A DNA stretch of 64,000 nucleotides from an uncultured Thermoleophilia bacterium (GCA_963741075.1 CAVUGS010000009.1:142308-206307); one strand, 5' to 3'. Shown: positions 18,694 to 51,544, counted from the stretch's first letter. Numbers and translations: made by a program. The notes: a model not told the origin generated them from the sequence alone.

Positions 18694-18725
18694 CCGGACG
18701 CGGCGCCCACGGCGCCGGAGAGTGA

Positions 18726-18766
18726 GACGGGCGCGGGGCCGGCTGACTGCCGGCCCCGCGCCCGTC
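18726..18766. terminator. Perfect 18-bp GC stem-loop between convergent fba and CN-hydrolase genes
   Basis: gacgggcgcggggccggc-tgact-gccggccccgcgcccgtc. Confidence 0.6.
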
Positions 18767-18793
18767 TGGCGTACGGTGGCGAGCCGGCTTGCT

Positions 18794-20474: not shown

Positions 20475-20679
20475 CGAGAGTGTGGGGGTCGCCGTGCTGC
20501 GCGCTCATGAGTCCACTCTACCCCCGAGCGCGCGCCGTGATGGTCCCCGCATCCGGCGCCCGGCTACGGCGCCGTGCCGACTCGCTGCCCCATCCGCCGG
20601 GTACTCAGAGTGTGCACGCTGTCTCACCAGGCCGGAGCCGCTGTCCGGCCGCGACAGAACTCCCACGGAGGCGAGAGCG

Positions 20680-21609: not shown

Positions 21610-21742
21610 AGCGCTGAGCGGCCCGCCGCAAGGGCGGAGGGAGACGAGAACATCTGGACCCTCCGCCCGCCTGCGCGGCCGCTTGTGGGCCTGCTTGACA
21701 CGCCCGCGACCCCGTCTGGTATGGTCCGGAAGCGCGCTTCGT

Positions 21743-21762
21743 TTAGTTATCCGACTAACTAA
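21743..21762. promoter_or_regulatory. Candidate TetR operator upstream of mtbB copy 1: TTAGTTA-tccgac-TAACTAA
   Basis: Perfect 7-bp inverted repeat in an AT-rich patch 34 bp before the start codon; near-identical to the palindrome at 25499-25520. Confidence 0.55.
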
Positions 21763-21795
21763 CGACCGCCCTTCGGGGGGACGATGGGAGGATCG

Positions 21796-23184
21796 ATGGC
21801 ACAGCGCATCCCGACACGGCTCGGTGACGGCTCGCTCGTCGAGATGACCCGGGCTGAGGTCGAGGCCGACCTGCACGCCGGCTCGGAGGCGGCCGTCAGG
21901 CGGGCGAAGGTCGAGCCGCTCACGCAGGACGAGCTCGATCACCTGCTCGACATCTTCACCTCCCCGGCGAAGTTCAGCGCCGTCGACTACGGCGACGAAG
22001 TCGTCCTCAGCTTCGACGGCTCGGGCAACGCCGACCTCGGGGCGCCGATCCTCGAGCAGGTCGTGTACCAGAACCACCACGGCGCCGACATGATCGAGCT
22101 CTGGCACCACGACTACTCGTACAAGGCCGTGCGCACCGTGCTCTCGTTCCAGACGCAGATGCTCAAGGACGCGCAGCAGCAGACGGTGATCCCGCTCAAC
22201 TACGGGGCGATGCCGGACCTGGGCCGCTACTCGCAGCCGGACGGCCCGGTCCAGAACTGGTCGGAGCTGATGCCGCTGGGCAAGATCGCCGAGGCGCGGG
22301 CCGCCCAGCTGGAGGCCGTCGAGCACCTCGAGCACGACATGTGGCTGGTGGCCGAAGCGATGGTGGCGGCCGGAGCCGACGGCCTCGACTTCGACACCGC
22401 AGGGGCCGCCGGGGACGCCGACCTGCTGGCCACGCTGCGCACGGCCCGCAGGGTCCGCGACACGTGGCCCGACATCGGCGTCGAGATCGGCCAGGCCGCC
22501 GAGCTCGTGCTGGGCATGCACGGCGAGCTCGAGTACGAGGGCATCCGGCTGGCCGGCCAGTGGCCGCTCGGCCAGCTCCGCGCCTGCACCGCCGCCGGCG
22601 CCACGATCTTCGGGCCGGCGGTGAACGTCAACACGACGAAGTCGCTCGCCTGGAACACCGCGCGCTCCTGCGCGCTCATCAAGCCGGTCACCGCCGAGGC
22701 CACCATCCCGGTGCACGTGAATGCCGGGATGGGCGTCGGCGGCGTCCCCATGACCCCGTATCCGCCCGTCGACGCCACGTCGCGCGCCTCGCGGGCGCTG
22801 GTCGACATCTGCAAGATCGACGGGTTGTAGGTGGGGGTCGGGGATCCCCTCGGGATGGCCTCGTCACACGCGCTCGCCTCGGGCATGGGCGGGATGCGGA
22901 CTGCCGGAGATCTGGTGGCCCGCATGCAGATGACCCGGGGCCTGCGCCTTCCGCAGGCCAAGCAGTACGTCGCCGACAAGCTCGGCTGCTCCGTCGCCGA
23001 CCTCAGCGACACCGTCGCGATGCACGACATCCGCCGCGATCTCGGCCTCGGCCGCATCCTGGTGCAGGACCTCACGTACGCCGACCAGCCGGGGACGATG
23101 GAGGCCAAGTTCCACATCGCCGAGGTGCTGGACATCCCGATCAACTCGGTGGAGCGCTTCAAGGCCAACGCCGGACTGCGGTAA
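21796..23184 (+). CDS. mtbB: Dimethylamine:corrinoid methyltransferase MtbB-like, in-frame TAG (putative pyrrolysine) at 22828-22830
   Basis: [31 protein letters not shown]...[42 protein letters not shown]. Total ~462 aa with the TAG at ~residue 345, as in archaeal MtbB (467 aa, Pyl 356). RBS GGGAGGA before the ATG at 21796 (alternative ATG at 21784). Confidence 0.85.
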
Positions 23185-23191
23185 GGAGACT

Positions 23192-24689
23192 CATGGGCTC
23201 GCAGCTCGACCTCAGCCGGCGGCAGCCGCTGCTGCCGCTCGGCTCGGACTTCGCCGTGCGCTTCTACGACGACGCGAAGCTCGACCGCTACAAGGAAGCC
23301 GTGCTCAGCGTGCTCGAGCGGACCGGCGTCAGGTTCGGCTCGCCGAAGGCGCTCGACATCCTCGCCGAGCACGGCGCCGACGTGGACCGCGCGTCCGGTG
23401 TCGTGCGCTTCGCGCCCGACCTCGTGACGGCCGCGCTGGCGAAGGCCCCGCGGACGTTCTGGCTGGGCTCCCGCGACGGCACGCTCGACCTCGACCTCGC
23501 GAGCGGCGAGACCTACAACACCACCAACGGCTGCGGCACCGAGGTCGTCGACTGGCACACCGGCGTGCGCCGGCCGCCGACCAAGGACGACCTCTCGGCC
23601 ATCACGCGCATGATCGACTACCTGGGCTCCGTCCAGTTCTGGTGGCCGAACGTCGCTGCCGCCGACTGCGGTGACACGCACACCCTGCACGAGCTGGACG
23701 CGGCCTGGAACAACACCGGCAAGCACCTCCAGGGCATGGTGCAGGGCGAGCGCGAGGCGCGGTTCGCGGTCGAGATGGCGACGGTGATCGCGGGCGGGGC
23801 GGAGCAGCTGCGCCGCCGCCCCCCGATGAGCAACCTCATCGGCACCGTCCAGCCGCTCATCAACGACAAGGACGGCATCGAGGCGGCGCTGGTGTTCGCC
23901 GAGGCGGGCATCCCCGTGTGCTTCGTCACCATGCCGACCTACGGGACGACGGCGCCGGCCACCAAGGCCGGCGCCTGCGTGATGGGCTTCGCCGAGCTGA
24001 TCAGCGCCACCGTGTGCGTGCAGCTGGCGCACCCCGGCGCGCCCGTGATCCTCTTCCCGCTGCCGGTGCACGCCGACCCGCGCACCGCGGCGCTGACCAC
24101 GGCGCCGCTGAATCACCGCGGCCTGTTCCTGCCCGGCGAGCTCGTGCACCACTTCGGGCTGCCGGCGATGACCGGCTACGCCGGCACCGACGACGACCTG
24201 CCGGGCAGCTGGCTGGCCGCGGCGGAGACGGCGCACACGGTGATGCTCGCCGGCGTCGTCGGCTCGGAGCTGATGACCACCATCGGGCTGACCAACCGCT
24301 ATCAGCTGTTCACGCCCGAGCACATGATGCTCGACGACGACCTCTACCACCGCGCCGCAAACGCCTTCCGCGACCTGGAACTGGACGAGGAGACCCTGGC
24401 GCTGGACGTCATCGACGAGGTCGGGCCGGGCGGGCACTTCCTGGGCCAGCCGCACACGCGCCGGCACATGAAGGAGACCGTGGAGCGCTCGATCGGCCAG
24501 GAGCTGGGCCCCGACGGCACGCACCTGCGGCACCCGGTAGAGGTCGCGCGCGAGCGGGGCGTCGACATCCTGGAGCACTACGTGCCGGAGCCGCTCGACG
24601 CGGCGAAAGCGGCGGAGCTGGCAAGGATCTGCGCCGCCGCGGACGAGGAACTCGGCGGCCAGGTCGTGGGCCGCGGCGAACGCGACTGA
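23192..24689 (+). CDS. MttB-superfamily methyltransferase, non-pyrrolysine paralog (quaternary-amine type)
   Basis: Uninterrupted 499-aa ORF with AAGGAG RBS. Homologous throughout to the MttB-family genes at 26950 and 28446, but has TGYAGTDDD where the Pyl motif would be. Confidence 0.75.
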
Positions 24690-24708
24690 CGTTCGGTCGG
24701 CGCCGCCG

Positions 24709-25410
24709 TCAGTCCGGCTCGTCGCCTGGCTCGCCGCCCGACTCGACGTGGCCCAGCACGAGCCGGCGCCAGAGGTCGAAGGCCGGCTCGAAGTCCAGGT
24801 CCGGGTCGGCGAGCTTCTGCAGCGCGATGCCGTCGGCGATGGCGACCGTGAGCAGCGCCATGGGCGCGATGTGCGCCGCGGGCTCCTTGTCGCCCGCGTC
24901 CTTGAGCGCCCACGCGTCCAGCTTGCGGTACCAGTCGAAGAGCTCGCGCAGGTGCGGTCGCAGCTCATCGTCGCGCAGGATGTGCGGGATGAGCTCGAAG
25001 AAGTTGCGGTAGGCGTCGGTGTCCTCGGGCAGTCCCTCGTGCAGCGCGAGCAGCTGCTTGCGCCGCTCGTCGCCGGCGGGGACGGCGGTGAGCTGCTCGA
25101 TGAGCTCCACCGCCTCCTGATACATGACGGAGTCGACGAGCGCGACGAGCAGGCCGGCCTTGCTGCCGAAGTGGTAGCGGATGAGCGCAGGGTTCTCGCC
25201 CGCCTCCCTGGCGATGGTCTCGAAGGTGAGACCGCGGAAGCCGTCGCGGGCGAGCACGCGCCTGGCCGCCTCCAGGATGCGCGCGGCCGTCGGGGCGAGG
25301 TCGGGCGTGGGATCGCCGAACGGCAGTTCGTACCTGGTCAGCGCACCCACCCCCTTCGCGTCTGTCGCCGGGCGTCGTCCGCGCGCCGCCCGGCGTTTTT
25401 CGATGCGCAC
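24709..25410 (-). CDS. TetR/AcrR-family transcriptional regulator
   Basis: HTH segment LTFETIAREAGENPALIRYHFGSKAGLL. Convergent with the mttB paralog and divergent from mtbB copy 2. The true start may be internal. Confidence 0.8.
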   Translation of the reverse strand: MRIEKRRAARGRRPATDAKGVGALTRYELPFGDPTPDLAPTAARILEAARRVLARDGFRGLTFETIAREAGENPALIRYHFGSKAGLLVALVDSVMYQEAVELIEQLTAVPAGDERRKQLLALHEGLPEDTDAYRNFFELIPHILRDDELRPHLRELFDWYRKLDAWALKDAGDKEPAAHIAPMALLTVAIADGIALQKLADPDLDFEPAFDLWRRLVLGHVESGGEPGDEPD

Positions 25411-25498
25411 CCTATCGGATACCGGCGGCCGCGCGCCAGACCCACGCCTCGGCGCAGCCGCCTTGACACCCCAAGTGCGTCTGCTAGTCTACCCGCAT

Positions 25499-25520
25499 AT
25501 TAGTTATGTAACTAACTAAT
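25499..25520. promoter_or_regulatory. Candidate TetR operator upstream of mtbB copy 2: ATTAGTTA-tgtaac-TAACTAAT
   Basis: Perfect 8-bp inverted repeat in the divergent TetR/mtbB intergenic region; same half-sites as 21743-21762. Confidence 0.6.
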
Positions 25521-25548
25521 CCTGCATGACGGCCATCGGGGGTGCTGG

Positions 25549-26953
25549 AGTGGAGAGACCCGTACGCACGCGACTCGGCGACGGGTCGCTCGTCGAGATG
25601 ACGCCCGGCGAGATCCGTGAGGACCTGCTCGCCGGCACCGAGATCGGCGCCCGCCGCGCCAAAGCCCCGCCCCTCTCGGACGCCGAGATCGACCACCTGC
25701 TCGACATCTTCTCGACCGAGGCCAAGTTCAGCGCCGTCGACATGGGCGACGAGGTCTGCCTGAGCTTCGACGGTTCCGGCAACCTGGACTCCGGCACGCG
25801 CGTCGACGAACTCTACAGCTACCAGAGCCACCGCGGCGCCGACATGCTCGAGCTCTTCGCCATCGACTACTCCTACAAGGCGATCAAGACCATCCTGAGC
25901 TACGAGACGCAGGCGATGAAGGTGGCCCAGCTCAACCTCATCGCGCCCACGCAGTACGGCGCGATGCCGGACCTGGGCCGGTACTCGATGCCCGACGGCC
26001 CGATCCCGAACTGGTCCGAACTCATGCCGCTCGGCCGCATCCAGGAGGCGCGGGACGCCCAGGTGGCGGCCATCGACCACGCCGTCAGCGACATGGTGTT
26101 CGTCGCCGAGGGCATGTGGGAGGCCGGCGCCGACGGCATGGACTTCGACACCGCCGGCGCCGCGGGAGACGCCGACCTGCTCGCGACCCTCACGGCGGTC
26201 GAGACACTCAAGGGTCGCTACCCGGACGTCGGTATCGAGCTCGGCATGGCGAGCGAGTGCGTCCTCGGCATGCACGGCGAGCTCACCTACAAGGGCACCC
26301 GGCTCGCCGGCATGTGGCCCAAGGCGCAACTCGAGGTCGCCCAGAAGGCCGGCGCCACCATGTTCGGACCGGCCGTCAACGTCAACACGACGAAGTCGAT
26401 CGCCTGGAACGTCGCCCGGGCGTGCACGATCATCAAGCCCTGCATGGACGTGGCCGAGATCCCCGTGCACCCCAACGTGGGCATGGGCGTCGGCGGCGTG
26501 CCCATGAGCCCGTACCCGCCCGCCGACGCCGTCTCGCGTGTCTCCCGCGCGCTGGTCGACATCCTCAAGTGCGACGGGTTGTAGGTGGGCGTCGGTGACC
26601 CTCTGGGCATGGCGTGCACGCACGCGCTGGCCTCGGGCATGGGTGGGATGCGGGCCGCCGGAGATCTGGTGGGCCGCATGCAGATGACCCGAGGGATGCG
26701 CCTCAACGAAGCCAAAGCCTACGTGGCGGAGAAGCTCGGCTGCGCCGTGGCCGACCTCGCCGACCCCATCGCCATGCACGACGTGCGCCGCGACCTCGGC
26801 CTCGGCCGGATCCCGGTGCAGGAGCTCACGTACCCCACGCACGCCGGCGCCATGGAGGCGAAGTTCCACATCGCCGAGGTGCTGGACGTCCCCATCAACA
26901 GCGTGGCGCGCTTCCAGGAGTGCGCCGGGCTGCGCCAAGGAGGAGCGGTGTGA
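25549..26953 (+). CDS. mtbB: MtbB-like dimethylamine methyltransferase copy 2, in-frame TAG at 26582-26584
   Basis: ...[46 protein letters not shown]...; the GTG at 25549 after a GGAG RBS gives an N-terminus collinear with the other copies (ATG at 25526 is an alternative). Confidence 0.85.
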
Positions 26954-28429
26954 AGAGGAACCTGCACGCCGGCGGCACGCGCAGCCGCGGGCTGAGCGTC
27001 AACGTCTTCACCGAGTCCGAGCTCGAGGACATCCATCTCGCGTCGCTCGAGGTGCTCGAGCGTACCGGCGTGTTCGTGGAGGCGGACGACGCGCGCGACA
27101 TCTTCCGGGACGGCGGGTGCGCCGTCGACCCCGAGACGCGCATCGTGCGCATCCCGCCGCACGTCGTCGAGGACGCCATCGCCTCGTCGCCGAGCAAGTA
27201 CGTGCTCTGCGGGCGCGACCCCAGGAACGACTTCCTCATGGAGCCGGGCCGGGTCGGGTTCACCAACTTCAGCGAGGGCATCCGCGTCATCGACAGCGAC
27301 ACCGGCGAGTACCGCGAGTGCACGCTCGAGGACGTCGGCGACATCGCCCGCCTCAACGACTACCTCGGCGAGATGGACACGCACGAGATCTCCGTCGGGG
27401 CCAGAGACGTCCCGCCGGAGACCGCCGCCGTCCACAACACCGAGGCGCAGCTGCTCAACACGACCAAGCCGATCGGCATCGGGCCGCTCTCGGGGATGGA
27501 GTGCCGCGCGATCCTGCGCATGTGCGCCGAGGTCGTCGGCGGCGAGGACGCGCTCCGCGAGCGGCCCATCGTCTACGGCGGCGTCTGCCCCGTCAGCCCG
27601 CTGAAGCTGCCGCGCGACGTCACCGAGGTCATCATCGAGTGCTCGCGCTGGTGGATCCCGGACAACATCCTCAGCATGGCGATGGCCGGCGGCTCCAGCC
27701 CCGTCACCCTCGCCGGCACCCTGGTCACGCACAACGCCGAGGTGCTCGAGCGGCATCGTGCTCGCCCAGCTCACGGAGCGCGGCTGCCCCGTGATGTACG
27801 GCAGCTCGACGACGGCGATGGACCTCAAGCTCGCGGCGGCCTCCGTCGGCTCGCCGGAGATCGCGCTGATCAGCGCCGGCGTGGCGCAGCTGGCCCGGCG
27901 CTACACGATCCCGAGCTTCGTGGCGGGGTTGTAGGCGGATTCCAAGCTCGGTGACGCGCAGACCGGTCACGAGAAGACCCTCACCGGCCTCACGGCAGCG
28001 TTGGCAGGCGCCAACCTGATCTATGGTGCGGGGATGATCGAATCGGGCGTCACCTTCGACAGCGCGCAGTTCGTCATGGACAACGAGATCGCGCGCATGA
28101 TCAAGCACGTCGTCGGCGGCATCCGCGTCGACGACGAGAGCCTCGCGGTGGACGACATCGCCGCCGTCGGCGCGTTCGGCGACTTCCTGAGCCTGGACGC
28201 GACCATGCGCCACATGCGCGAGCTCAGCCAGCCTGAGGTCCTCGACCGCCGCGTGCGCGAGGACTGGGAGGCACGCGGCAGCACGGACCTGTACGCTCGC
28301 TGCCACGCCAAGGCGAAGGATATCCTCGCCGAGCACCATCCCGAGCCGCTCCCCGACGACGTCGCGAAGCGCATCCGTGCGATCGTGGAAGAGACCGACC
28401 GCGCCGTGGGCGTCAGCGCGCCGGCGTGA
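26950..28429 (+). CDS. mttB: Trimethylamine-methyltransferase MttB-like with in-frame TAG (putative pyrrolysine) at 27942-27944; one apparent frameshift near 27749
   Basis: ...[65 protein letters not shown]... The C-terminal 160 aa after the TAG have no start codon and continue MttB homology. GTG start overlaps the mtbB stop (GTGTGA). Confidence 0.75.
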
Positions 28430-28445
28430 GCCGAGAGGGAACCCC

Positions 28446-29920
28446 GTGAAGGACCCACTCAAGCAAGCCATCATCCGGCAGCCTCTGGCGCCTCTGCGGT
28501 CCGACTTCTCGTTCCGCTTCCACGACGAGGCGGGGCTGGAGCCGCTGCACGAGGCCACCCTGCGGCTCCTGGAGACGACGGGCATGCGCTTCGAGTCGCC
28601 CAAGGCGCTCGCGATCCTGGACAAGGCCGGCGCGAAGGTGGACGAGGGCTCTGACCTCGTCCGCCTGCCCCGCCGGCTCGTCGAGGAGGCACTCGCCCAG
28701 GCGCCGCGGCAGTTCACGCTCGGCGCCCGGGACGCGGCCTGCGACCTGCGACTCGGCTCGGGCTTCACCTACGGCACCACCGACGGCTGCGGCGTCGAGG
28801 TCGTCGACTGGCACACCGGCGAGCGCCGCTCGTCCACCAAGGCCGACCTCGAGGCGATCACCCGCATGCAGGACTGCCTCGGCTCGATCAGCTACTGGTG
28901 GCCCACGGTCAGCGCCGGCGACTGCGGCGAGACCGCGCAGCTGCACGAGATCGAGGCCGGCTGGAACAACACGGGCAAGCACCTCATGGGCATGGTGCAG
29001 GGCGAGACGCTCGCCAGGGCGGCCGTCGAGATGGCGACCGCGGTGGCCGGCGGGGCCGAGGAGCTCCGCCGCCGGCCGGTCCTCAGCGACCTCATCGGCA
29101 CCGTCTCGCCGCTCCTGCACGACAGGGACGGCATCGAGGCCGGCCTGGTCTTCGCCGCGGCCGGCGATCCCGGTCTGCTACGTGACCATGCCCAACCTCG
29201 GCACGACGGCGCCGGCCACCAAGGCCGGCGCGTTCGTCGTCGGCGCCGCCGAGATCGTCGCCGCGGCGGTGCTCCACGAGCTCGCCGCGCCGGGCAGCCC
29301 GGTCATCGGGTCGATCATGCAGATCTACGCCGACCCGCGCACGGCGCTCACCCTGACGACCCCGCTCGACGACCGCTGCCGGTTCCTCGCCACCGAGCTG
29401 CTGCACAGCTTCGGGATCCCGGCGCTGGGGGCGTTCGGCGGCACCGACGCCCAGGCGCCCGGGACGTGGCTCGCCGGGGTCGAGACCATGCTGCAGCTGC
29501 TGCAGGTGCCGCTCGACGGCTGCGAGCTCTACACGCGGCATCGGGCTCACGGACACGTACCAGCTGTTCACGCCCGAGACCCTCATCCTCGACGACGACC
29601 TCTACCACCGCGCGAGGCACGCCTTCCTCGACATCCCCATGGACGAGGAGTCGCTCGCGCTGGACGTGATCGACGCCGTCGGCCCGGGCGGGCACTTCCT
29701 CGCCCAGCCGCACACCCGCCGGCACATGCGCGACGCCGTCCTGCGCTCGGTGAGTCAGCAGATCGGCCCGGACGGGCAGCACTACCGCGACCCGGTGGAG
29801 GTCGCGCGCGAGCGCGCCCTCGACATCCTCGACGGCTACCGGCCGGAGCCGCTCGCCGCCGACGTGCAGAGCGAGCTGCGCCGCATCGTCGACGCCGCGG
29901 ACGCGGCGGTCAAGGGATAG
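28446..29920 (+). CDS. MttB-superfamily methyltransferase, non-Pyl paralog 2, at least 2 apparent frameshifts; terminates with TAG
   Basis: Collinear with the 23192-24689 protein (N-terminal region ~43% identical to it, then TMPNLGTTAPATKAGA...GPGGHFLAQPHTRRHM). Segments lie in ORFs 28377-, 29182-30168 and 29639-29920. Confidence 0.7.
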
Positions 29921-29944
29921 CCGCCGCCCGCGGCGGCGGTCGCC

Positions 29945-30899
29945 CTAGAGAAGATGGTAGTAGCGCAGCTGGCGCGACAGCCTGGCCTGCCATTTGGCAC
30001 GCCCCGATGGCAGCAGGTGCAGCAGGTCATGGAAGTCGGCCGATCGCAGGCCGACGCTCGAGACGAAGCGGAGATACGGGATGCCGTGCGCCTTGGCCAG
30101 GTCGAGGCACGCCTGGCGATACATCTGGAGAGCCTCGTCGAAGTCGTCCCCTACGATCTCGAGGTTGAGGGGCAGCTCGAGGAGCGCAGGGCGCAGGCCA
30201 CGGGCCTCGCAGGTCTCGACGATCTTGGTGAGCTCAGCCAGCCGTTCCTGGAAGACCGCCTGGAAGACCGGGTAGCGATCGCTCACCCAGTCGCTCGCGA
30301 GCTGGCGCTTCTCGTCGTCGGAGAGCGCGGTCCGGTTGTCGTAGTGATGCTGGTACCAGGCCTCGGGGGGCGTGCGTCTGATCGAGTACCGCGGAAGCGA
30401 TCTGGACTCGTGATCCATGAGGAAGCGGGAGGTGCCCACGCTGATGAGCACCGTGCCTCTCTTCTTCGGCAGCTTGCTCACGATGAGCTCGTCCTCGACG
30501 AAGGTCTGGCAACGCGTCGAGCACACATAGGTCGTGGCAGATCTCCCGGTCAGACTGCGCAGCTGCGCCGCCCATGCCGCTCTCGCTGGTCACCGACTCA
30601 CGAGCCGCGGAGCCGCCCAGCAGATAGACGACCCGGCGTTCCGGAAGCTGGTAGCGGAGCCAGCTGAGGACCTGCACGACGTGGGTCCACTCGCCGACCG
30701 CGCCCCGAGGGACGGCCGCCGCCTCGCGGGAGGATTCGATGAATGCCGGAGACCACTGACACTCCTCAGCCGAAGCTTTGGGAGCGACCCCCAGCACGAG
30801 TGCGAACGCGACGAGGGTGACGGCCACGAACCACCGCGCGCTCCCACGCGCGGCCCGGCCATGCCCAGCGCTGGATCGACTGATCGTCTCGCCCCCCAC
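29945..30899 (-). CDS. Exported hypothetical protein, one apparent frameshift near 30530
   Basis: Signal-like WFVAVTLVAFALVLGVAPKASA; N-terminal part in ORF 30234-30899, C-terminal part in 29945-30526. Confidence 0.45.
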
Positions 30900-30961
30900 G
30901 TGGGCACCCTACCATTCCCGCGTGCCAGGCGCAGGCGATCGTGGCAGCCTCGGGCCGCGAC

Positions 30962-31826
30962 TCAGGTGTCGAGCAAGAGACGATCGACGGCGAAAGCCTC
31001 GCCGGCGACCTCGTGGAACTTCTCGATGAGGTCGCCGACCTGGAGCGTAGCCTTCTGCTCGCTGCTCAAGTCGAGGACGATGCGACCGGCGTGCATCATG
31101 ACCAGCCGGTCGCCGTAGCGCAACGCCAGCTCCATGTTGTGGGTCACCATCAGAGTCGTCAGCTGGCGCTCCGTGACGATCTCGCCCGTGAGTCCCATGA
31201 TCGTGGCCGCTACCTTGGGGTCCAGCGCGGCCGTGTGCTCGTCGAGCAGGAGGAGGCTCGGCTCGGCGATGGTCGCCATGAGCAGGGACATCGCCTGGCG
31301 CTGTCCGCCGGAGAGCTTGTTGACCCCCGCCTTGAGCCTGTCCTCGAGGCCCATGCCGAGGCGCGAGAGCTGCTCGCGCATCACTGCGCGCCGCTTGTTG
31401 GTCACGCCCATGCGCAGGCTGCTCCGCTTGGCGCGGAGCAGCGAGATGGCCAGGTTCTCCTCGATGGTCATGTCGGGGGCGGTGCCGGCGCGCGGGTCCT
31501 GGAACACCCTGCCGATGGACCGGCTGCGCACGTACTCGGGCTGCCTGGTCACGTCCCGTCCGCCGAGGAGCACCTTGCCCGACGTCACCGCAAACGTGCC
31601 GGCCACGGCGTTGAGGAGCGTGGACTTGCCGGACCCGTTCGAGCCGATGATGCTCACGAACTGGCCGGCCGGGACTACAAGGTCGATCCCGTTGAGCGCC
31701 ACGACCTCGTTGGCGGTGCCGGGGAAGAAGATCTTGCGGATCGCGCCGAGCTCCAGCGGGGCCGGCGCGCGAAGCGGTGCCCCTCCGGCGCCCCGCTCGA
31801 TAGCTTGTCTGCGGCGGCTGTTCACG
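30962..31826 (-). CDS. ABC transporter ATP-binding protein (COG1101-type)
   Basis: GSNGSGKST Walker A, LSGGQRQAMSL signature, LLLLDEHTAALD Walker B; GTG start overlaps the permease stop (GTGA). Confidence 0.8.
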
Positions 31827-32725
31827 AGTGCATCACCTTCTTGCGCACCGTGGGGACCGAGAGAGCGACGACGACCAGGACGGCCGTCAAGAGCTTGAGG
31901 TCGGTCGGCGCAATGCCCAGCCGCAGGCTCACGGCGATGAGCAGCCGGTAGACGATCGAACCGCCGATGACGCTGAACAGCACCCAGCTGATGCTGCGGA
32001 CTCCGAACAGCACCTCGCCCATGATCACGCCGGCCAGGCCGGCCACGATGGTGCCGATGCCCATGCCGACGTCGGCGAACCCTTGTTGCTGCGCCACCAG
32101 CGAGCCGCTCAGCGCGACCAGCGCGTTGGCGATGCCCAGGCCGACGATGCGCGTGATGTTGGTGTTGGTGCCCATGCGCCCGGATCATGCTCTCGTTGTC
32201 GCCGGTCGCCTGCAGGCAGAGGCCGAACTCGGTGTGCAGCAGCCAGTCGAGCAGGTACTTGACCGCCACGGCGAGCGCGGCGAGCCCGATGATGAGGTTC
32301 CACGCGACCATCGACAGCGAGAACAGCGCGCCGATCTTGTCGAAGATGACCTGCACGCCCAGGAGCGGGGTGTTGCTCTTGCCCATGATGCGCAGGTTGA
32401 CCGTGTACAGCGCCGTCATCGTGAGGATGCCGGCGAGCAGCTTGGGACCGTAGTTGGTCGCGTCGCCGTCACCCGACTTGAGCAGCAGATGCAGGAACCC
32501 GGTGACGAAGCCGGCGCACAGGCCTGCGAGGACGCCGGCCGCCGTCGCAAGGACGGGCGAGTGGCCGCCGGCGATGAGCGCCGCCGTGACGGCCGCGCCG
32601 AGCGGCAGGCTGCCGTCGACGGTGAGGTCGGGGAAGTCGAGCACGCGGAACGTGATGAACACGCCCAGCACCATGAACGCGTAGACGAGACCCTGGAGCA
32701 GGGCGCTCTGGATGATGACCTGCAC
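31822..32725 (-). CDS. ABC transporter permease (COG4120-type), one apparent frameshift near 32190
   Basis: MQVIIQSALLQGLVYAFMVLGVFITFRVLDFPDLTVDGS... continues as (M)GTNTNITRIVGLGIANALV... in another frame. Confidence 0.7.
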
Positions 32726-32741
32726 TGACGCGACTCCGTGA

Positions 32742-32820
32742 CGGGGGCCGGAGTAGCTTCGCTGCTCCGGCCCCCCGTTGGCAACCCCGACCCCCGCCCG
32801 CCCGAGGCGGGCGGGGGTCG
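32742..32820 (-). other. Two tandem GC-rich intercistronic hairpins between SBP and permease genes
   Basis: acgggggccggag...ctccggccccccgt and gacccccgcccgcc-cgag-gcgggcgggggtc. Confidence 0.45.
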
Positions 32821-32841
32821 CAGGGACGTGTTACCGGCGGC

Positions 32842-33871
32842 TCAGAACTTGTTCTGCGCCTGGGACTTGAGATCGGCGGGGATGGTGACGCCCATGGCCG
32901 CCGCCGCCTTCTCGTTGATCGGACAGCTGCAGGTTCTTGGCGTACTCGACCGGGATGTCCTTGATCGGCGTGCCGCTCAGGATCTCGGCGGCCTGGTAGC
33001 CCGCCTGCTTGCCCAGGTCCTTGTAGTCGAACGCGTAGGCGGCGACGGCGCCGCGCTTGACGCTGTCGGTGTCGCCGGCGATGACGCGGGATCTTGTTCT
33101 GCTCGCCGATCTTGATGATGCTCTCGAGCGCCGAGACGGCGGTGTTGTCGCGTGAGCACCGAGATGGCGTCCACGCGGCCGACGAGCGACTGCGGTCGCC
33201 GCCTGGACCTCGGACGAGTTGCTCGGCGGTCGCGTCGATGACCTTGATGCCCATCTTCGCCGCGGCCTCCTTCTCGGCCTTGATGAGGAACACCGAGTTG
33301 GACTCGCCGGCGTTGTAGACCACGCCGATCGGTCTTGACGTCCGGGACGATCTGCTTGATGAGGTCGAGGATGCGGCTGCACCGGCAGCATGTCGCTGAC
33401 GCCGGTCACGTTCGCCGGTCGGAGCCTTCGGGTCGGTGACGAGGCCGGCGCCGACGGGATCGGTGACGGCGGTGAAGACGATCGGGGTGGTCGTGATCGG
33501 CCTTGACGACGGCCTGGGTCGTCGGAGTGGCGACGCCGAGGATCAGGTCGAGGCCCTCGCCGGCGAACTTCTGCGCGATGCTCGAGGCGTTCGCCATGTC
33601 GCCCTGCGCGTTCTGGTCGTCGTAGGTGACGTTGGTGAAGCCCTTCTCGGCCAGCGCCTCCTTGAAGCCCGCGACGGCGGCGTCGAGCGCCGGGTGGGTG
33701 ACGATCTGGGTGATGCCGATCTTGTACGCCTTGCTCGTGCGTCGGAGCTGCTGCTCGGACTGCTGCTGGAGCTGCTCGAGTCGCTGCCGCAACCGGCGGC
33801 GAGGCCGAGCGCGACGACGAGAGCACGAGCACGATGGCGACGCTCAGCCTTGACATGGGACGCATCGTTCT
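32842..33871 (-). CDS. ABC transporter substrate-binding lipoprotein (COG2984-type), multiple apparent frameshifts
   Basis: MRPMSRLSVAIVLVL..LAAGCGS lipobox, KIGITQIVTHPALDAAVAGFKEALAEKGF..., VVYNAGESNSVFLIKAEKEAAAKMGIKVIDA, end ...NLQLS..QNKF; pieces spread over three or more frames. Confidence 0.6.
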
Positions 33872-34086
33872 CCTTTCGGACCTCTGGATGGTTGGCGCAT
33901 TGTAGTGGCGCCGCGTCTGCGCGCACAAGCACTGCGACTCATACGATATGCAGACGGAGATACAGCACCAAGGAGAGGGCGGCGGGCCGCTGGCCCGCCG
34001 CCCTCTCCGAGTGCGACGCCTGAGCGCTGGAGCCGGCGGCGCGTCCGGGGGCGGGCCTCCCGCCCCTCCCCGCGCCGCCCCCGCCG

Positions 34087-35488
34087 TCAGAAGCCCGAGG
34101 TCCGCTCCTTGAACCGCTCGACCGAGTTGATCGGGATGTCGAGCAGCTTGCTGATGTTGAACTTGGCCTCCATCATGCCCGGCAGCGCCGGATGCGTGGA
34201 CGAGGTCATGGTGAGCAGGCCGAGCCCGTGGTCCTGCCGGATGGTCTCCATGGCGACCGGATCGGACTGAGGTCGCGCGTGGTGCAGCCGAGCTTGCCGG
34301 CCACGTACTCCTTGGCTTCCTTGAGACGCATACGCCTGGTCATCTGCATCCGAGCGACGAGATCTCCCGCCGCCCGCATACCGCCCATGCCGGACGCCTG
34401 CGTGTGGGCTCCCTCCATGCCGAGAGGGTCGCCCGTGCCCACCTAGTAGCCGTCGATCTTGAGGATCTCGACGAAGGCCTTGCTGGCCCGCGAGGTGGCG
34501 TCGGCGGGCGGGAACAGGCACGTCGGCACGCCGCCGACGCCCATGCCCACGTTCACGTGCACCGGGATCGTGGCGACCTCGGCGGCCGGCTTGATGAAGG
34601 TGATCGCCCGGGCGATGTTCCAGGCGGTCGACTTGCCGGTGTTGATGTTGACGGCCGGCCCGTAGATGCTGGCGCCGGCCGCGGTGACCATCTCGAGCTG
34701 CTTCTTGGGCCACATGCCGGCGAGGCGCTCGCCGTCGAACTCGAGCTGGCCGTGCATGCCGAGCACGAACTCGCTCGCCATGCCGATCTCGATGCCCAGA
34801 TGCGGGTACTTCTCGCGCAGCTGGCGGCAGGCGGTGAGGGCGGCGAGGAAGTCGGCGTCGCCCGCCGCCCCCGTCGTGTCCATGTCGATGCCGTCGGCGC
34901 CGGCCTCGATCATGGCGTCGGCGACGAAGTCGATGTCCTCGACCAGCATCGCCGCAGGCCTCGACCTGGGCGTCGCGCGCCTCGTCGATCTTGCCCATGG
35001 GCAGCAGCTCGGACCAGTTCGGGATGGGGCCGTCGGGCTTCGAGTAGCGGCCCAGGTCGGGCATGGCGCCGTACTGCACCGGGTTGGTGAGCAGCGCCTG
35101 CGCGATCTTCATGCTCTGGCCCTCGTGGGCCACGTTGGTCTTGACGGCCTTGTAGGAGTAGTCGGCCTGCCACAGCTCGGGCATGTCGATGCCGAGCAGC
35201 GTCTCGTAGCTCTGCAGGTCCTGCACCCGGTTGCCGATGTGCTTGGTCCCGGTGCCGTCGTTGCTCAGCACGACCTCTTCGCCGATGTCGACGGCGGTGA
35301 AGCGCGCCGACGATGCGTAGATGTCGAGCAGGTGATCCAGCTCGTCCTGCGTGAGTACGTCGACCTTGGCCTTCTTGGCCGCGACCCTCGGTGCCTTCTT
35401 CGAGATCGGCCTTGATCTCGGAGCGGGTCATCTCGACGAGCGACCCGTCACCCATGCGAGTGGGGATCTTGGGCTCCAACAGCATCAC
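34087..35488 (-). CDS. mtbB: MtbB-like dimethylamine methyltransferase copy 3, in-frame TAG at 34443-34445; 3-4 apparent frameshifts
   Basis: [21 protein letters not shown]..., [37 protein letters not shown], ...[45 protein letters not shown]..., C-terminal ...[27 protein letters not shown]. Confidence 0.75.
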
Positions 35489-35650
35489 CTCCGTGCTTCG
35501 TCCGGATCGACCGCCTGCGCCGTGGCGCGCGAGGCCCGCGAGCTACCACGATGAGAGCGAAGCGATGCGACCACTGTCCGGCGGACCTCCGCGCGCCAGT
35601 CTACAGCGGCCTCCTTCGGAGGCGCCACCGGCCAGAAGGCCGCGAGGAGA

Positions 35651-37063
35651 TCAGAGAGGCGGGATCGCCGGCTGCTTCACGAACGGCACCATCGGCAGGC
35701 GCCACGGCGACGATTCGACGGGCACCGGGGCTCCGGCGCCGGCGCGTCCGGCGCCGAGCGAGACCATTGGAGGACCCGCGGGTGTCTTCGCCAGGAGCAA
35801 GCGGACCACGCCGCCGGCTTCGACCGTCGCGCTCTCGACGGCGACGGGCAGACCGGCGCAGCTCACGGTGAACCCGCCGGCGGGGCCGGGAGCGAGCGGC
35901 TCGGCACCGGGCGCCGCGCTGACGGTCACGTCACGCGCCCCGTTCCAAGCGACGGAGGCCACCGCCGGCGACCGGGCCGCGGAGCGGCCGAGCACACCGG
36001 CGAGAATCGCCGCCGTCCAGCGTCCCGCCGCAACCTGCATGTCGTCGGCGGCGGCGAAGTGGACGACGCCTTCGAGGTCGATGTCGTAGAGAACCGGGCC
36101 AGCGACGACGTTCGCCCGGCCCCACGCGCCCTGCTGCGCGAGGCGGACTGCGTCGACGCCGGCATCCCGGTAAGCCGGGCCGTAGTCGCCGATCTGCGCG
36201 ACGACCAGCGGCGCGCCGCAGTCTCGCCGCAGGTCCCGGCTCAGCCGGAGCAGCGACGCCTCGTAGGAGTCGCCGGGCGTCAGCCGCCGGGCATCGGCCT
36301 CGCCTTGCCAGAAGAGTACCGCTCGGACGCGCCCGCCCACCGTGCGGATGCGGCGCAGCATCGAGCCGTAAAGCGTCGACGGCTCGCGCGGCGCCACGGC
36401 CGGCCGCTGCCAGCTCGCCACGGTCGTCCCGACGCGCGCGCACGGCACCAGTGCAACGGGCACGCCCTCGGCGGCCATGAGGCGCTGAGCGACCAGCGGC
36501 CACACCGAGCCGCCCGCGCCCGCGTCCCGGCTGACGCCGTCCACTTGTCCTTCGGCCGAGTCCACCGGGTCTCTGAGCCGCTGCCAGCGATAGTCGTTGC
36601 CGAAGACCGTCGCCTGCAGGTTCGGGTCCGCGCACCTGAACCGGATTGGGCTCCGTCCGCTCGCATTGCTCTGTCCGGCGATCACGTAGATGTCGCCCAC
36701 GCCCACCAACCGCCGCATGGCGGCGATCTCGTGGTGCCGCGCGCTTCGCGCGACGAGCGCGGCCTGGCCCGCGAGCTGGGACGGAAGCGTGAGGGCGAAC
36801 GAGCCGTCGGCCGCGCGGGAGGCCTGCCGCCAGGAGCCGTGGCCCCAGCGCACCTGTACGGGGCCCGCGAAGCCTCGGACCCTGCCGATGACCGTGATGC
36901 GGGCAGACCCACCGGCGCCGCGCTGGACGACCTGGCAACTGCGCGGGGTGGAAATGGTGATGCGGGGCGCGGCCGAGGCCACGGAGCCTGAGCCGGCCAC
37001 GGCCAGCACGGCGAGCGCTCCCACGACGGCCAGCACGGCCGCACCACGCGTGCCCACGGACAT
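35651..37063 (-). CDS. Secreted SGNH-hydrolase / sialate O-acetylesterase-like protein
   Basis: Signal peptide; GDIYVIAGQSNASG block typical of the DUF303/SASA esterase family; 470 aa intact. Confidence 0.65.
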   Translation of the reverse strand: MSVGTRGAAVLAVVGALAVLAVAGSGSVASAAPRITISTPRSCQVVQRGAGGSARITVIGRVRGFAGPVQVRWGHGSWRQASRAADGSFALTLPSQLAGQAALVARSARHHEIAAMRRLVGVGDIYVIAGQSNASGRSPIRFRCADPNLQATVFGNDYRWQRLRDPVDSAEGQVDGVSRDAGAGGSVWPLVAQRLMAAEGVPVALVPCARVGTTVASWQRPAVAPREPSTLYGSMLRRIRTVGGRVRAVLFWQGEADARRLTPGDSYEASLLRLSRDLRRDCGAPLVVAQIGDYGPAYRDAGVDAVRLAQQGAWGRANVVAGPVLYDIDLEGVVHFAAADDMQVAAGRWTAAILAGVLGRSAARSPAVASVAWNGARDVTVSAAPGAEPLAPGPAGGFTVSCAGLPVAVESATVEAGGVVRLLLAKTPAGPPMVSLGAGRAGAGAPVPVESSPWRLPMVPFVKQPAIPPL

Positions 37064-37103
37064 GACGCCAGCTCCTCCATTCGACGACAGCGCAGCCCCT
37101 CAG

Positions 37104-37179
37104 TGGAGCCGGCGGGCGGGTTCGAACCGTCGACCTGCCGCTTACAAGGCGGCTGCTCTGCCAGCTGAGCTACGCCGGC
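37104..37179 (-). tRNA. tRNA-Thr (anticodon TGT)
   Basis: Reverse complement GCCGGCGTAGCTCAGCTGGCAGAGCAGCCGCCTTGTAAGCGGCAGGTCGACGGTTCGAACCCGCCCGCCGGCTCCA; one A-C mismatch in the T-stem. Confidence 0.8.
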
Positions 37180-37236
37180 CCGCGGACAGTCTACCCCAGG
37201 CGGCCCGACGCACAGCACCCGGACTATACTGGCCCC

Positions 37237-38103
37237 ATGCGAAGTCTGTGCCAGGCATGGAGACGCCGGACCGTGCCCGGCGTGGCCCTCATCATCACTG
37301 CGGCGGCGCTCGCGCTGCCGTTCGCCACGCCCCCCTCGGCATCCGCCACCTCGGCCCCGGAGGTGAGGGCCCGCAGCGGGATCCTCATCAGCCGCACGAC
37401 CGGCAACGTGCTGTGGTCCAAGAGCCCCGGCCGGCGCCTGGCGCCGGCTTCGTGCACCAAGATCATGACCGCGCTTCTGGTGCTCGAGCACTACCGCGAT
37501 CTCAGCCGCACTGTCCGTGCGCCGGCAAGCGTCACCAGGCAGCAGGAGGTCGCCATCGGCCTCAGCCCGGGTGACCGGATCACCGTGCGCCAGGCTCTCC
37601 GCGGCCTGCTCATCAAGAGCGCCAACGACGCCGCCGTCACGCTCGCGGTCGCGGTCGCCGGCAGCGAGCGCGCGTTCGTGCGTCAGATGAACCGCCGGGC
37701 CGTCCAGTTGGGGCTCACGGACACCCACTACCGCAACTGCCGGGGCAAGGACCAGACGGGACATTATGCGTCGGCGCGCGACCTGGCGACGCTGGGCCGG
37801 CTCGCCATGGAGGACACGCGGTTCCGCGCGATCGTCGGGACCAGGACCGCGGTGATCACGTGGCCCCCATCGCACCGCGTCACCGTGACCTCGCACAACC
37901 GGCTGCTGGACTACGCGTGGGGCAACGGCATCAAGACGGGTTCCACCAGATTGGCGGGGATGGTGCTCGTCGGCTCGGGCAGCCCGTCGGGCGTCCCCCT
38001 CATCGTGGTGACCATGCACGAACCGTCACGCGACCGCGAGGAGAAGGACGCCGTCGCGCTCTTCAAGTGGGGTGCCACCCAGACGGCTCCCGCCGGACCG
38101 TGA
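37237..38103 (+). CDS. D-alanyl-D-alanine carboxypeptidase (peptidase S11)
   Basis: SCTKIMTALLVLEH (SxxK), LIKSANDAAVTLA (SxN), signal peptide. Confidence 0.8.
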   Translation: MRSLCQAWRRRTVPGVALIITAAALALPFATPPSASATSAPEVRARSGILISRTTGNVLWSKSPGRRLAPASCTKIMTALLVLEHYRDLSRTVRAPASVTRQQEVAIGLSPGDRITVRQALRGLLIKSANDAAVTLAVAVAGSERAFVRQMNRRAVQLGLTDTHYRNCRGKDQTGHYASARDLATLGRLAMEDTRFRAIVGTRTAVITWPPSHRVTVTSHNRLLDYAWGNGIKTGSTRLAGMVLVGSGSPSGVPLIVVTMHEPSRDREEKDAVALFKWGATQTAPAGP

Positions 38104-39086
38104 GCGCGCCTCGACCGTCGAGCCGGCGATCGGAGCCGCACCGGCTGATTCACTGCAGGTCTGCAGCCGGCCGCCCGGCGCTCCTGCCGCCCGCCCTCCT
38201 CGCCACGCTGCTCGCCGCCCTCGCGCTCGCCACGGTCGCGACGCTCGCCGCCTGCGGCGGCGAGCCCCCCTCCGCGGGGCCCTCGCCGACCGGCACGGCG
38301 CCGCCCGAGGTGCAGGCCTGGACGGGCATCCTCGTCGAGCGCGACTCGGGCGACGTGCTCTGGAGCAAGGACCCGGACCGCGAGCTGCCACCGGCGTCCT
38401 GCACCAAGATCATGACGGCGCTGCTCACGCTGGAACACGTGGACGACCTCGACGCCATGGCCACGGTGCCGGACATCCCGCTGCCACAGAAGGTCGGGGT
38501 CGACCTGGTCCCGGGCGACCGCATCAGCGTCAGGCAGGCGCTCACCGCCCTGCTGGTCAAGAGCGCCAACGACGCGGCGCTCACCCTGGCCTCCTACGTC
38601 GGCGGCAACGAGAAGAAGTTCACAGGGCTGATGAACCAGAGGGCGAAGCAACTGGGCCTGACGCACACGCACTTCATGAACTGCCGCGGGACGCCGGAGG
38701 ACGGCCACTACTCGTCGGCCCGCGACCTCGCGACGCTCGGCCGGTTCGCGATGGGGGACGCCACCTTCCGGGAGCTCGTCGGCACCAAGACGGCCGTCAT
38801 CCGCTACCCGCCCGACGGGGCGGTGCCGGTGAAGAACCACAACCGCCTGCTGGACTACCCGTGGGGCGACGGCATCAAGACCGGCGCGACGGACATCTCC
38901 GGCAAGGTGCTCGTCGGCTCGGGCAAGCCCGGACCCGTCGCCCTGATCGTCGTGACCATGCACGAGCCGACGCGCGACCAGGAGGTCAAGGACGCGGTCG
39001 CGCTGTTCGCGTGGGGCACGGCCGAGCACCTGCGGCGCGCGGCCGCCTCCCCGGCTCCCTCGCCGTCCGCCTCACCGTCGCCCTGA
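38100..39086 (+). CDS. D-alanyl-D-alanine carboxypeptidase paralog, lipoprotein
   Basis: LAACGG lipobox, SCTKIMTALLTLEH, LVKSANDAALTLA. The true start may be internal to the ORF; the GTG at 38100 overlaps the upstream stop. Confidence 0.75.
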   Translation: MSAPRPSSRRSEPHRLIHCRSAAGRPALLPPALLATLLAALALATVATLAACGGEPPSAGPSPTGTAPPEVQAWTGILVERDSGDVLWSKDPDRELPPASCTKIMTALLTLEHVDDLDAMATVPDIPLPQKVGVDLVPGDRISVRQALTALLVKSANDAALTLASYVGGNEKKFTGLMNQRAKQLGLTHTHFMNCRGTPEDGHYSSARDLATLGRFAMGDATFRELVGTKTAVIRYPPDGAVPVKNHNRLLDYPWGDGIKTGATDISGKVLVGSGKPGPVALIVVTMHEPTRDQEVKDAVALFAWGTAEHLRRAAASPAPSPSASPSP

Positions 39087-39098
39087 CGACGCGGCGGC

Positions 39099-40481
39099 TC
39101 AGCCGCCGGTGAGGGCGCGCAGACGCTCGGCGGAGCGCACCGGCACGTCGAGCACGCGGGCGATGTTGAGCTTGGCCTCGATCGCCAGCGCGTCTTCCAC
39201 GGTCGCCGTGTCCTCGGTGGGGATCGTCCCCAGGCCGTGCGCGCGGCGCACCTCGGCCATCGTCACCGGGTCGCTCAGGTCGGCGGGGCTCACGCCGAGC
39301 TTGTCGGCCACGTAGGCCTTCGCCTCGGGAAGCCGCATCCGTCGGGTCATCTGCATGCGGGCCACCAGATCTCCGGCGGTCCGCAACCCGCCCATGCCCG
39401 ACGCGACACCGTGGCCGATCCCCTGGCTGTGGTTGTCGCCGGCGCCGATCTACAAGCCGTCCAGCCGCAGGAGGTCGACGCACGCGCGCGAGGCGCGCGA
39501 GACGGCGTCGACCGGCGGCAGCGCGTGCATGGGGACGCCGCCCACACCCATCCCCCCGTTGAGGTGGATGGGGATCTCGGCGGCGTCGGTGCACGGCTTG
39601 CAGATGGTGCAGGTGCGCGCCACGTTCCAGGCGACCGTCTTGCCGGTGTCGACGTTGATGGCCGGTCCGAAGACCGAGGCGCCGGCCCTGGCCGCCAGGC
39701 GCATCTGGTCCGCCGGCCACAGTCCCGCCAGCCGCACCCCGTCGTACTCGAGCTCGCCGTGCATGCCCAGCACGAACTCGCCGGCCATGCCGATCTGGAT
39801 GCCCCAGTGCGGGTACCTGGCGCGGATGCGCTCGATCGCCTTGAGGGCGGCCAGGAAGTCGGCGTCGCCGGCCGCCCCGGCGGTGTCCAGGTTGATGCCG
39901 TCGGCGCCGGCCTCGTACATGCCCGCGGCCACGTACACGATGTCTTCCACCGCGAGCTCGACCGCCTCCTCCTGGGCCGCCCGCGCCTCTGCGATGCGGC
40001 CCAAGGGCAGCAACTGCGACCAGTTGGGGATGGGGCCGTCCGGCACCGTGTACCGCCCCAGGTCCGGCATGGCGCCGTACTGGCACGGGACGGTGAGCAG
40101 CAGCTGCGCCCGGCGCATGGTCTCCTGCTCGAACGGCAGCACCGGCTTGACCGGCTTGAACGAGTAGTCGTGGTGATACAGCTCGACCGTGTCGGTGCAG
40201 ACGGTCTGCTCGTAGTTCTGCAGGTCGTTGATGCGCGACCCGGCGTCCTGGCTGCCGACGCCGTCCGAGCTCAGGACGACCTCGTCGCCGATGTCGACGG
40301 CGCTGAAGCGGGAGCGGCTCGCGAAGATGTCGACGAGGTGGGCGATCTCGTCCACCGCCAGCGGCTCCACCCTGGCCCGCTTCGCCCCGGCCTCGGCGCC
40401 CGCGTGGACGTCGGCTTCGATCTCGGCGCGGGTCATCCGCACCAGCGACCCGTCGCCCATGCGCGTCGGGATGCCTTCCAT
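39099..40481 (-). CDS. mtbB: MtbB-like dimethylamine methyltransferase copy 4, in-frame TAG at 39450-39452, otherwise intact; divergent post-Pyl segment
   Basis: [112 protein letters not shown]...; 460 codons. Confidence 0.8.
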
Positions 40482-49023: not shown

Positions 49024-51445
<2,422 letters not shown>

Positions 51446-51544
51446 CTGTCGATCCTTGCCTTGCTGGTGGAATCTTCGAACAGGTCAAGCGGGGTGTCGC
51501 GTCCGTGCCGAGGCGCGCCGGGCGCCGCCTCGGTGAGCGGGCGC

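Follow-up and report, generated by a model that had tools for sequence, protein, structure and literature searches.

Four mtbB genes and one mttB gene with an in-frame TAG at the pyrrolysine site in an uncultured Thermoleophilia bacterium

Relation to described pyrrolysine systems

The closest described systems to the genes reported here are the methyltransferases MtbB1-3 and MttB of the methanogen Methanosarcina barkeri (PDB 7XCL/7XCM), the pyrrolysine (Pyl) systems of Bacillota and Desulfobacterota, represented by Desulfitobacterium hafniense, Acetohalobium arabaticum and Bilophila wadsworthia, and the metagenome-assembled genomes (MAGs) of Stordalen Mire (PMC10805028). The present analysis concerns a stretch of 64,000 nucleotides (nt) from an uncultured Thermoleophilia bacterium (GCA_963741075.1 CAVUGS010000009.1:142308-206307; about 70% GC), referred to as the window in the following, and in particular four mtbB genes and one mttB gene within it, each of which contains an in-frame TAG at the Pyl site. 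Altogether, it is highly probable that these five are genuine Pyl-dependent methylamine methyltransferase genes of an uncultured member of the Thermoleophilia. The source of the window is a soil or peat actinobacterium (Thermoleophilia, Actinomycetota), and the genes lie in its chromosome. When one genome per GTDB species was scanned, the closest relatives were uncultured Thermoleophilia and Actinomycetota MAGs, while the nearest DNA was an ENA contig (ERZ25039502:contig_67566, locus L001 in our numbering) with 95.7% identity across 21694-28475.

Compared to M. barkeri, the genes of the window belong to the same families over their full length, carry the single UAG in the same column and likewise occur as several mtbB paralogs per genome. 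In contrast, the host is a bacterium of the Actinomycetota with a GC content of about 70% and not a methanogen, and a coenzyme M pathway context is missing. In the case of MttB, alignment of the frame-corrected product to the M. barkeri structure (7XCM, E=3e-123) placed the TAG of the window opposite residue 334 (Pyl334), and Tyr364 was conserved as part of the motif 'ANxIYG'. However, the Gly110-Thr111 of the M. barkeri enzyme is replaced by Ser-Glu, and the locus of the window comprises no corrinoid gene.

The Pyl-using Bacillota and Desulfobacterota are known mainly for mttB, whereas in the window mtbB is the expanded family. With these bacteria the relatives of the window share a PylS split into pylSc and pylSn together with pylT and pylBCD, and the window shares the continued use of UAG as a common ordinary stop codon. 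The difference lies in the arrangement, since the pylSc of Thermoleophilia is not part of one pylTSBCD operon but follows an Amidase_3/PG_binding gene with an overlap of 4 nt.

The MAGs of Stordalen Mire represent essentially the same lineage with the same genes, and four of them (bog_752, fen_672, palsa_645 and palsa_647) were among the loci recovered here (L026, L054, L060, L062 and L068). The window, in contrast, comes from another genome; it carries mtbB four times and has lost the corrinoid gene. Ellenbogen et al. 2023 described the expression of Pyl-encoding mttB and mtbB by Actinobacteriota MAGs (genera Bog-752 and RBG-16-64-13), and recognised these genes via their truncation at the amber codon and via transcripts (PMC10805028); the terms pylS, pylT and pylB did not turn up in a search of its main text. 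Furthermore, PylRS genes were described for two Actinobacteria by Guo et al. 2022 (PMC9630628). An earlier note on this DNA, made from the sequence alone, had called Pyl-type MtbB rare in bacteria and four copies in such a genome unusual. This was overstated in view of these reports and of the 505 stretches encoding relatives from the mtbB clade that were found among the GTDB species genomes. Of these 505, the best 72 loci carry, with few exceptions, the label Thermoleophilia, Actinomycetes or Actinomycetota, and many belong to the MFD series.

Pyl-type mtbB and mttB genes had therefore already been reported in outline for this lineage, and the window is a correct identification rather than a discovery. 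What seems to be little documented is the scale within the class, with 505 relatives and several paralogs per locus, as well as the fixed position of pylSc behind the amidase gene and the Ser-Glu in place of Gly110-Thr111 in a Pyl-type MttB. The genes confirm that the expansion of the genetic code by Pyl extends beyond methanogens, Bacillota and Desulfobacterota. It occurs regularly in an uncultured actinobacterial class, whose MAGs originate here from soil, peat and anaerobic digesters and which recurs in such metagenomes. These bacteria can probably consume dimethylamine and trimethylamine, two compounds that methylotrophic methanogens use as well. Since standard gene callers split the genes at the TAG, the pathway is systematically under-annotated in MAG catalogues.

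The TAG codons of the mtbB and mttB genes

The coordinates of the five genes are given in Table 1. With X set at the TAG, copies 1 and 4 were scored against TIGR02368, the NCBIfam equivalog for dimethylamine--corrinoid protein Co-methyltransferase. Both exceeded the cutoff of 369.1 bits with one stretch that covers profile positions 1-464 of 466 and runs across the TAG (418.2 bits for copy 1, 411.8 bits for copy 4). The Pfam profile PF09505 (Dimeth_Pyl) matched copy 1 with positions 4-353 before the TAG (E=1.5e-112) and 355-462 after it (5e-40). Since only column 354 is skipped, the TAG corresponds to this column. The Rfam family RF02509 (PYLIS_2), which is defined as the 100 nt starting at the Pyl UAG of mtbB genes (PMC3639795), hit each of the four copies with its model position 1 falling precisely on the TAG, at scores of 46-68 bits compared to a gathering score of 36. 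The profiles of Pfam, NCBIfam and Rfam thus bear out the position of the TAG at the Pyl column; a structure of MtbB was also sought in the PDB, where none exists. The five genes belong to the MtbB and MttB families and carry the TAG at the Pyl site, and the earlier note's interpretation as Pyl-type MtbB is supported by the family profiles, the TAG column and the conservation described below.

Translation confirmed the four TAG positions of that note exactly, and the conserved MtbB-like blocks quoted there are present. Read through the TAG, copies 1, 2 and 4 yield MtbB proteins of 460-467 amino acids (aa) with the TAG at codon 344-345. For copy 3 the earlier description of the TAG as the sole interruption does not hold, since three further indels of 1-2 nt break its frame, and its protein could only be assembled by joining segments of three reading frames. 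According to translation, DNA alignment with the other copies and indels relative to a related locus (L069), the shifts are +1 near 35388-35395, +1 near 34950 and +2/-1 near 34265. The gene boundaries of the note translate cleanly for copies 1 and 4, whereas its start of copy 2 at 25549 is one base out of frame; an alternative start of this copy is ATG 25526. Altogether, all TAGs of the earlier observation stand, while the frame of copy 3 and the start of copy 2 had to be corrected and a fifth Pyl gene had been overlooked. The four reconstructed MtbB paralogs show a pairwise identity of 58-68%, and the TAG is kept in all of them.

The fifth gene, a Pyl-type mttB, was absent from the earlier list of TAG genes. 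The Rfam family RF02510 (PYLIS_3, mttB) matches 27932-28031 with 74.9 bits, that is from the TAG onward. Among the MttB copies of the lineage a stop codon at the Pyl site was found in 38 of 38 (any stop codon counted; TAG in the window), and the Tyr was kept in 37 of 38. Gly110 is stated to be 100% conserved in Pyl-MttB (PMC9842639). At the positions aligned to the Gly110-Thr111 cis-peptide, the MttB of the window comprises Ser-Glu instead, and so do all 33 readable copies of the lineage in an ungapped local alignment. As judged from this alignment, the replacement may point to another substrate or to another mode of corrinoid docking. Five relatives (L001, L002, L010, L011 and L018) carry the Pyl-type mttB in intact form.

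Throughout the window and the fetched loci (70 sequences), the codon at the Pyl position of mtbB was TAG in 118 of 118 copies; no sense codon, TAA or TGA was found there in any of the 118 copies of these 70 loci. Such constancy goes far beyond what chance would produce. The best 120 database homologs of copy 1 (63-99% identity) are almost all exactly 344 aa long, since gene callers cut them at the same codon. The GC content at third codon positions (GC3) is 0.91-0.94 in the segments after the TAG, and for copy 2 it amounts to 0.95 before and 0.91 after the TAG. Copies 1, 2 and 4 are intact with a GC3 of 0.91-0.96. Over 107 sequences, the column entropy after the TAG was 0.47, 0.26 and 0.94 for the first, second and third codon position, respectively. 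Coding constraint therefore persists in the same frame past the TAG. A sequencing error at the TAG was rejected based on its presence in 118 of 118 copies. A split gene was rejected on the same grounds and based on copy 4, which has no start codon after the TAG.

If the TAG were an ordinary stop, no Pyl would be involved and either the protein of 344 aa alone would be functional, or it would be accompanied by a second protein of about 117 aa starting from a GTG. The earlier note had stated that no start codon follows the TAG, which turned out to be not strictly correct for copies 1-3: there the TAG is followed by GTG, and ORFs (open reading frames) of 117 and 122 aa begin at this point. This observation favors an ordinary stop, as do the 344 aa products annotated by gene callers and the lack of pyl genes in the window. 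However, the GTG is a conserved Val codon of the family, and copy 4 and its orthologs contain ATC at this place, which is not a start codon. A plain stop would furthermore be expected to drift, whereas TAG is never replaced by TAA or TGA, the site is the catalytic Pyl column, and the full Pyl system is found in relatives, with pylSc adjoining mtbB in one of them. An ordinary stop at these positions is considered extremely improbable.

Table 1. Positions of the Pyl-type methyltransferase genes, the downstream hairpin and neighbouring genes in the window (nt, counted from its first letter)
Feature	Position	Strand	Remarks
mtbB copy 1	21796..23184	+	TAG 22828-22830, codon 345 of 462; stop TAA; PF09505, TIGR02368, PYLIS_2
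mtbB copy 2	25550..26953	+	TAG 26582-26584, codon 345 from GTG 25550; PYLIS_2 66.5 bits
mtbB copy 3	34087..35488	-	TAG 34443-34445; three indel frameshifts; PYLIS_2 68.2 bits
mtbB copy 4	39099..40481	-	TAG 39450-39452, codon 344 of 460; PYLIS_2 46.2 bits
Pyl-type mttB (trimethylamine methyltransferase type)	26950..28429	+	TAG 27932-27934; one 1-nt frameshift near 27747
Hairpin, +67 to +98 from U of UAG, copy 1	22894-22925	+	in all four minimum-free-energy folds
Hairpin, copy 2	26648-26679	+	as above
Hairpin, copy 3	34348-34379	-	as above
Hairpin, copy 4	39355-39386	-	as above
MttB-superfamily gene without TAG	23184..24689	+	intact, about 500 aa; follows copy 1 directly; PF06253 E=3e-55, profile 32-494
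TetR-family regulator	24709..25488	-	between mtbB copies 1 and 2; Pfam TetR_N, TetR_C_31
Third MttB-family gene (non-Pyl)	28446..29920	+	two frameshifts; Pfam MTTB matches in three frames
ABC transporter	30962..33928	-	BPD_transp_2 permease, ATPase, substrate-binding protein split over two frames (Pfam)

Although the Rfam models matched at each TAG, the 5' helix of PYLIS_2 was paired in only 57% of the cells among 108 distinct homologous sequences, which is less than in shuffles, and in copy 1 most pairs of this helix are non-canonical. The folding z-scores of the four 100-nt segments were unremarkable (0.10, -1.62, -2.14 and 0.10). The PYLIS hits can therefore be attributed mainly to the conserved coding sequence; as proof of an RNA structure they were rejected, since the 5' helix is unsupported in this lineage. 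The 3' helix behaves differently and forms a hairpin over 11 codons of mtbB (Table 1). In the same 108 sequences its cells were paired to 95.1% compared to 89.8 +/- 0.4% in shuffles, a value reached by none of 500 shuffles, and to 32-42% when the partners were slid. Cells changed on both sides amounted to 50 compared to 12.3 +/- 2.8 in shuffles. At the pair 72-93, for example, 66 sequences have GC and 29 have CG, and synonymous third positions are involved. All these figures are inflated by the relatedness among the sequences. At a distance of 66 nt, the hairpin cannot reach a ribosome that is decoding the UAG. The hairpin may tune UAG read-through or mRNA stability, and it is regarded as a lead and not as a finding.

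Pyl decoding and biosynthesis genes in related genomes

A tblastn search with the C-terminal domain of Methanosarcina mazei PylRS found no PylS in 1.29 Mb comprising the window and 73 mtbB-flanking loci, and ARAGORN found no tRNA-Pyl in the window and 60 mtbB loci. In most genomes the pyl genes are not adjacent to this mtbB cluster. A second route started from the PylSc of D. hafniense (confirmed against PDB 3DSQ/2ZNI). In a first search with this query, the best 120 matches were only Bacillota. From a representative library at 50% identity, hits with the amino acid composition of high-GC organisms were then picked, and one of them, P0242 (about 52% identical to D. hafniense PylSc), was used for a second search, which revealed a large PylSc clade including Thermoleophilia sequences. 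Two of these are named by NCBI as 'pyrrolysine--tRNA(Pyl) ligase large subunit', one from '[Thermoleophilia bacterium]' (P0413) and one from '[Actinobacteria bacterium]' (P0507).

The gene of P0507 lies on JAAZAR010000071.1 (L077), which belongs to the same assembly as an mtbB locus (L034, JAAZAR010000040.1) whose MtbB shares 89% identity with copy 1. All Pyl proteins encoded there exceeded their NCBIfam cutoffs (given in brackets): pylSc with 320 bits (178), pylSn with 127 (51), PylD with 212 (150), PylC with 337 (248) and PylB with 444 (348). In addition, this locus contains a tRNA-Pyl(cta) and an MtbC-like corrinoid protein (225 bits, cutoff 215). Thus, one MAG, JAAZAR01, comprises the full set of pylT, pylSc, pylSn, pylB, pylC and pylD together with mtbB. 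Corresponding pairs were found for P0413 (JBAZPK010000196.1, L076), which shares its assembly with the mtbB locus L045, and for P0429 (JADGPQ010000021.1, L078), which shares its assembly with the mtbB locus L055. On a contig of 1.14 Mb (ERZ25039459:contig_19728, L079), pylSc directly adjoins a TAG-containing Dimeth_Pyl gene that was split into products of 344 aa and 86 aa, and its neighbourhood also includes an MTTB fragment and a TetR gene. A further locus (L074) carries pylSc, pylSn, tRNA-Pyl and a partial pylC. Its tRNA-Pyl differs from that of L077 by one base; both fold into a cloverleaf whose anticodon stem has 7 bp, and the CCA end is encoded in the gene. These data show that genomes related to the window hold a complete pyl gene set, so that the earlier note's expectation of a Pyl system elsewhere in the genome is borne out for relatives.

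The placement of pylSc was identical in six of six loci (L074-L079; locus coordinates 8919-10861), where its first 4 nt overlap the end of a PG_binding_1/Amidase_3 gene. The pair sits in a conserved neighbourhood in the order gltX, PmbA/TldD and amidase. In L074 and L077, pylSn, pylT and pylBCD (pylC partial in L074) follow a few kb downstream on the other strand; in L077 a corrinoid and a radical-SAM gene sit in between, while in L079 mtbB comes after pylSc. This arrangement suggests a long vertical inheritance and possibly a coupling of expression to a housekeeping gene.

We infer that the genome of the window has pyl genes of its own and that Pyl is actually inserted, and the substrates of the paralogs and the downstream methyl acceptor would be as follows. 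Once the pyl genes are expressed, tRNA-Pyl (CUA) would be charged by the split PylSc/PylSn with pyrrolysine made by PylB, PylC and PylD. The Pyl-tRNA would then compete with release factor 1 for the single in-frame UAG, and reading of this codon would yield full-length MtbB of 460-467 aa and MttB of about 490 aa. In these enzymes, pyrrolysine would activate dimethylamine or trimethylamine and the methyl group would be passed to the Co(I) of a corrinoid protein, and from there, by analogy to other bacteria, presumably to tetrahydrofolate. The Pyl residue has a mass of 237.148 Da, corresponding to Lys + 109.05 Da and not to Lys + 237 Da as given in the earlier note.

A wider picture can be drawn, in which Pyl decoding has long been inherited vertically within the Thermoleophilia, MtbB has been expanded to four or more paralogs, some of the enzymes act on other amines, and the hairpin is functional. 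The inheritance and the expansion are suggested by the fixed position of pylSc in a housekeeping locus, by the Pyl kept in four paralogs of 58-68% identity together with a further divergent mtbB copy upstream of copy 1 in relatives, and by the altered active-site Gly-Thr of MttB. Apart from dimethylamine and trimethylamine, some of these enzymes may therefore use other secondary or tertiary amines. Taken as a whole, this combination is regarded as doubtful.

Corrinoid gene, frameshifts and surrounding genes

Several observations weigh against functional Pyl genes in the window. Within its 64 kb there is no pylT, pylS, pylB, pylC or pylD, and apart from L079, where a single contig carries both, the assignment of mtbB and pyl genes to the same genome depends on metagenome binning. 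About one fifth of the ordinary genes of the window end in TAG, including grpE, clpB, pepX and the gene of a solute-binding protein, and Pyl decoding must therefore be tolerated or regulated, as in other bacteria that use Pyl. No cognate corrinoid gene stands beside the methyltransferases: a tblastn search of the 64 kb with the corrinoid proteins of two relatives gave only an insignificant match (E=0.96). About 2.2 kb that follow mttB in five relatives (L001, L002, L010, L018 and L041) are deleted in the window. Two of the five Pyl genes, mtbB copy 3 and mttB, are frame-broken, and some decay of the cluster may have taken place in this strain.

In L001, the segment missing from the window includes an amino-acid permease gene as well as a corrinoid gene called as B12-binding, while in L011 the insert is shorter (about 630 bp). 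The remnant of the corrinoid gene in the window consists of its first 10 codons (VKDPLKQAII, 28446-28475, compared to MKEPLKQAII in L001). At the junction 28475/28476 it continues in frame into the N-terminal part of the MttB-family gene that follows (RQPLAPLRSDF...).

Such observations would be expected if the frameshifts were real and the corrinoid gene had been lost, so that some or all of the Pyl genes of this strain were pseudogenes in a lineage that still uses Pyl. The three frameshifts of copy 3, the one of mttB and the two of the third MttB-family gene speak for such a decay, and so do the clean deletion of 2.2 kb, which fuses the corrinoid start to the next gene, and the lack of a corrinoid protein in 64 kb. 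However, similar frameshifts occur in unrelated genes, as clpB (49027-51484), an EAL gene (45999-46927), an aminotransferase gene (60900-62293) and the substrate-binding protein gene (32831-33928) are also split between frames. Compared to relatives of 91-96% identity, the window shows 1-nt indels in both directions, some of them inside genes that are intact in the window. L001 carries 1-nt indels of its own in such genes, a pattern of long-read error. Since unrelated genes are split too and the indels of relatives lie at other sites, the extra frameshifts in copy 3, mttB and the unrelated genes are most likely indel errors of long-read assembly and not signs of pseudogenisation, and the same pattern limits the trust in any 'pseudogene' call within the window. 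Furthermore, copies 1, 2 and 4 are intact with the GC3 given above, and a corrinoid protein is found beside pylSc in L077, so the partner of the window's enzymes may be encoded elsewhere in the genome. Decay at the strain level is therefore judged quite unlikely, and the reading of the five genes as Pyl-dependent methyltransferase genes is preferred.

The gene cluster begins with mtbB copy 1, followed by a non-Pyl gene of the MttB family, a TetR gene on the opposite strand, mtbB copy 2 and the Pyl-type mttB. It continues with the third MttB-family gene, which is of the non-Pyl type and contains two frameshifts, the ABC transporter and mtbB copy 3, the transporter being placed between the mttB genes and this copy. 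The product of the non-Pyl gene after copy 1 reached 272 bits against TIGR02369, which is below the cutoff of 525. A TetR gene is also present in the locus L079, which contains both mtbB and pylSc. Between copies 3 and 4 lie a SASA esterase gene, a tRNA-Thr and two D-Ala-D-Ala carboxypeptidase genes, and ligA follows copy 4. Further along the window, a cluster of dnaK, grpE, dnaJ, hspR and clpB was found. Within this cluster, the TAG of grpE (53204-53206) is in frame with the directly following dnaJ, and Pyl read-through at this point would produce a fusion of GrpE and DnaJ.

In the region upstream of copy 1 (6402-9898 of L001), L001 contains an extra divergent mtbB paralog of the 'GMNGL' type on the opposite strand, which is apparently present in many other relatives too. 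The window shows about 3 kb of other sequence instead (18694-21693), including a gene with a metallo-beta-lactamase fold (19677-20504). Based on this difference, the gene content flanking the cluster varies among close relatives.

ARAGORN reported a tRNA-Ser(tga) at 39810-39890 (+), antisense within mtbB copy 4. This call is probably a false positive, since it was not matched by the Rfam tRNA model. An ORF at 59053-59787 (+), located in a stretch of poor coding signal (about 57600-60900), showed weak motifs of a multihaem cytochrome c (doubled CXXCH, MtrC/MtrF-like) and may represent a frameshifted multihaem cytochrome gene.

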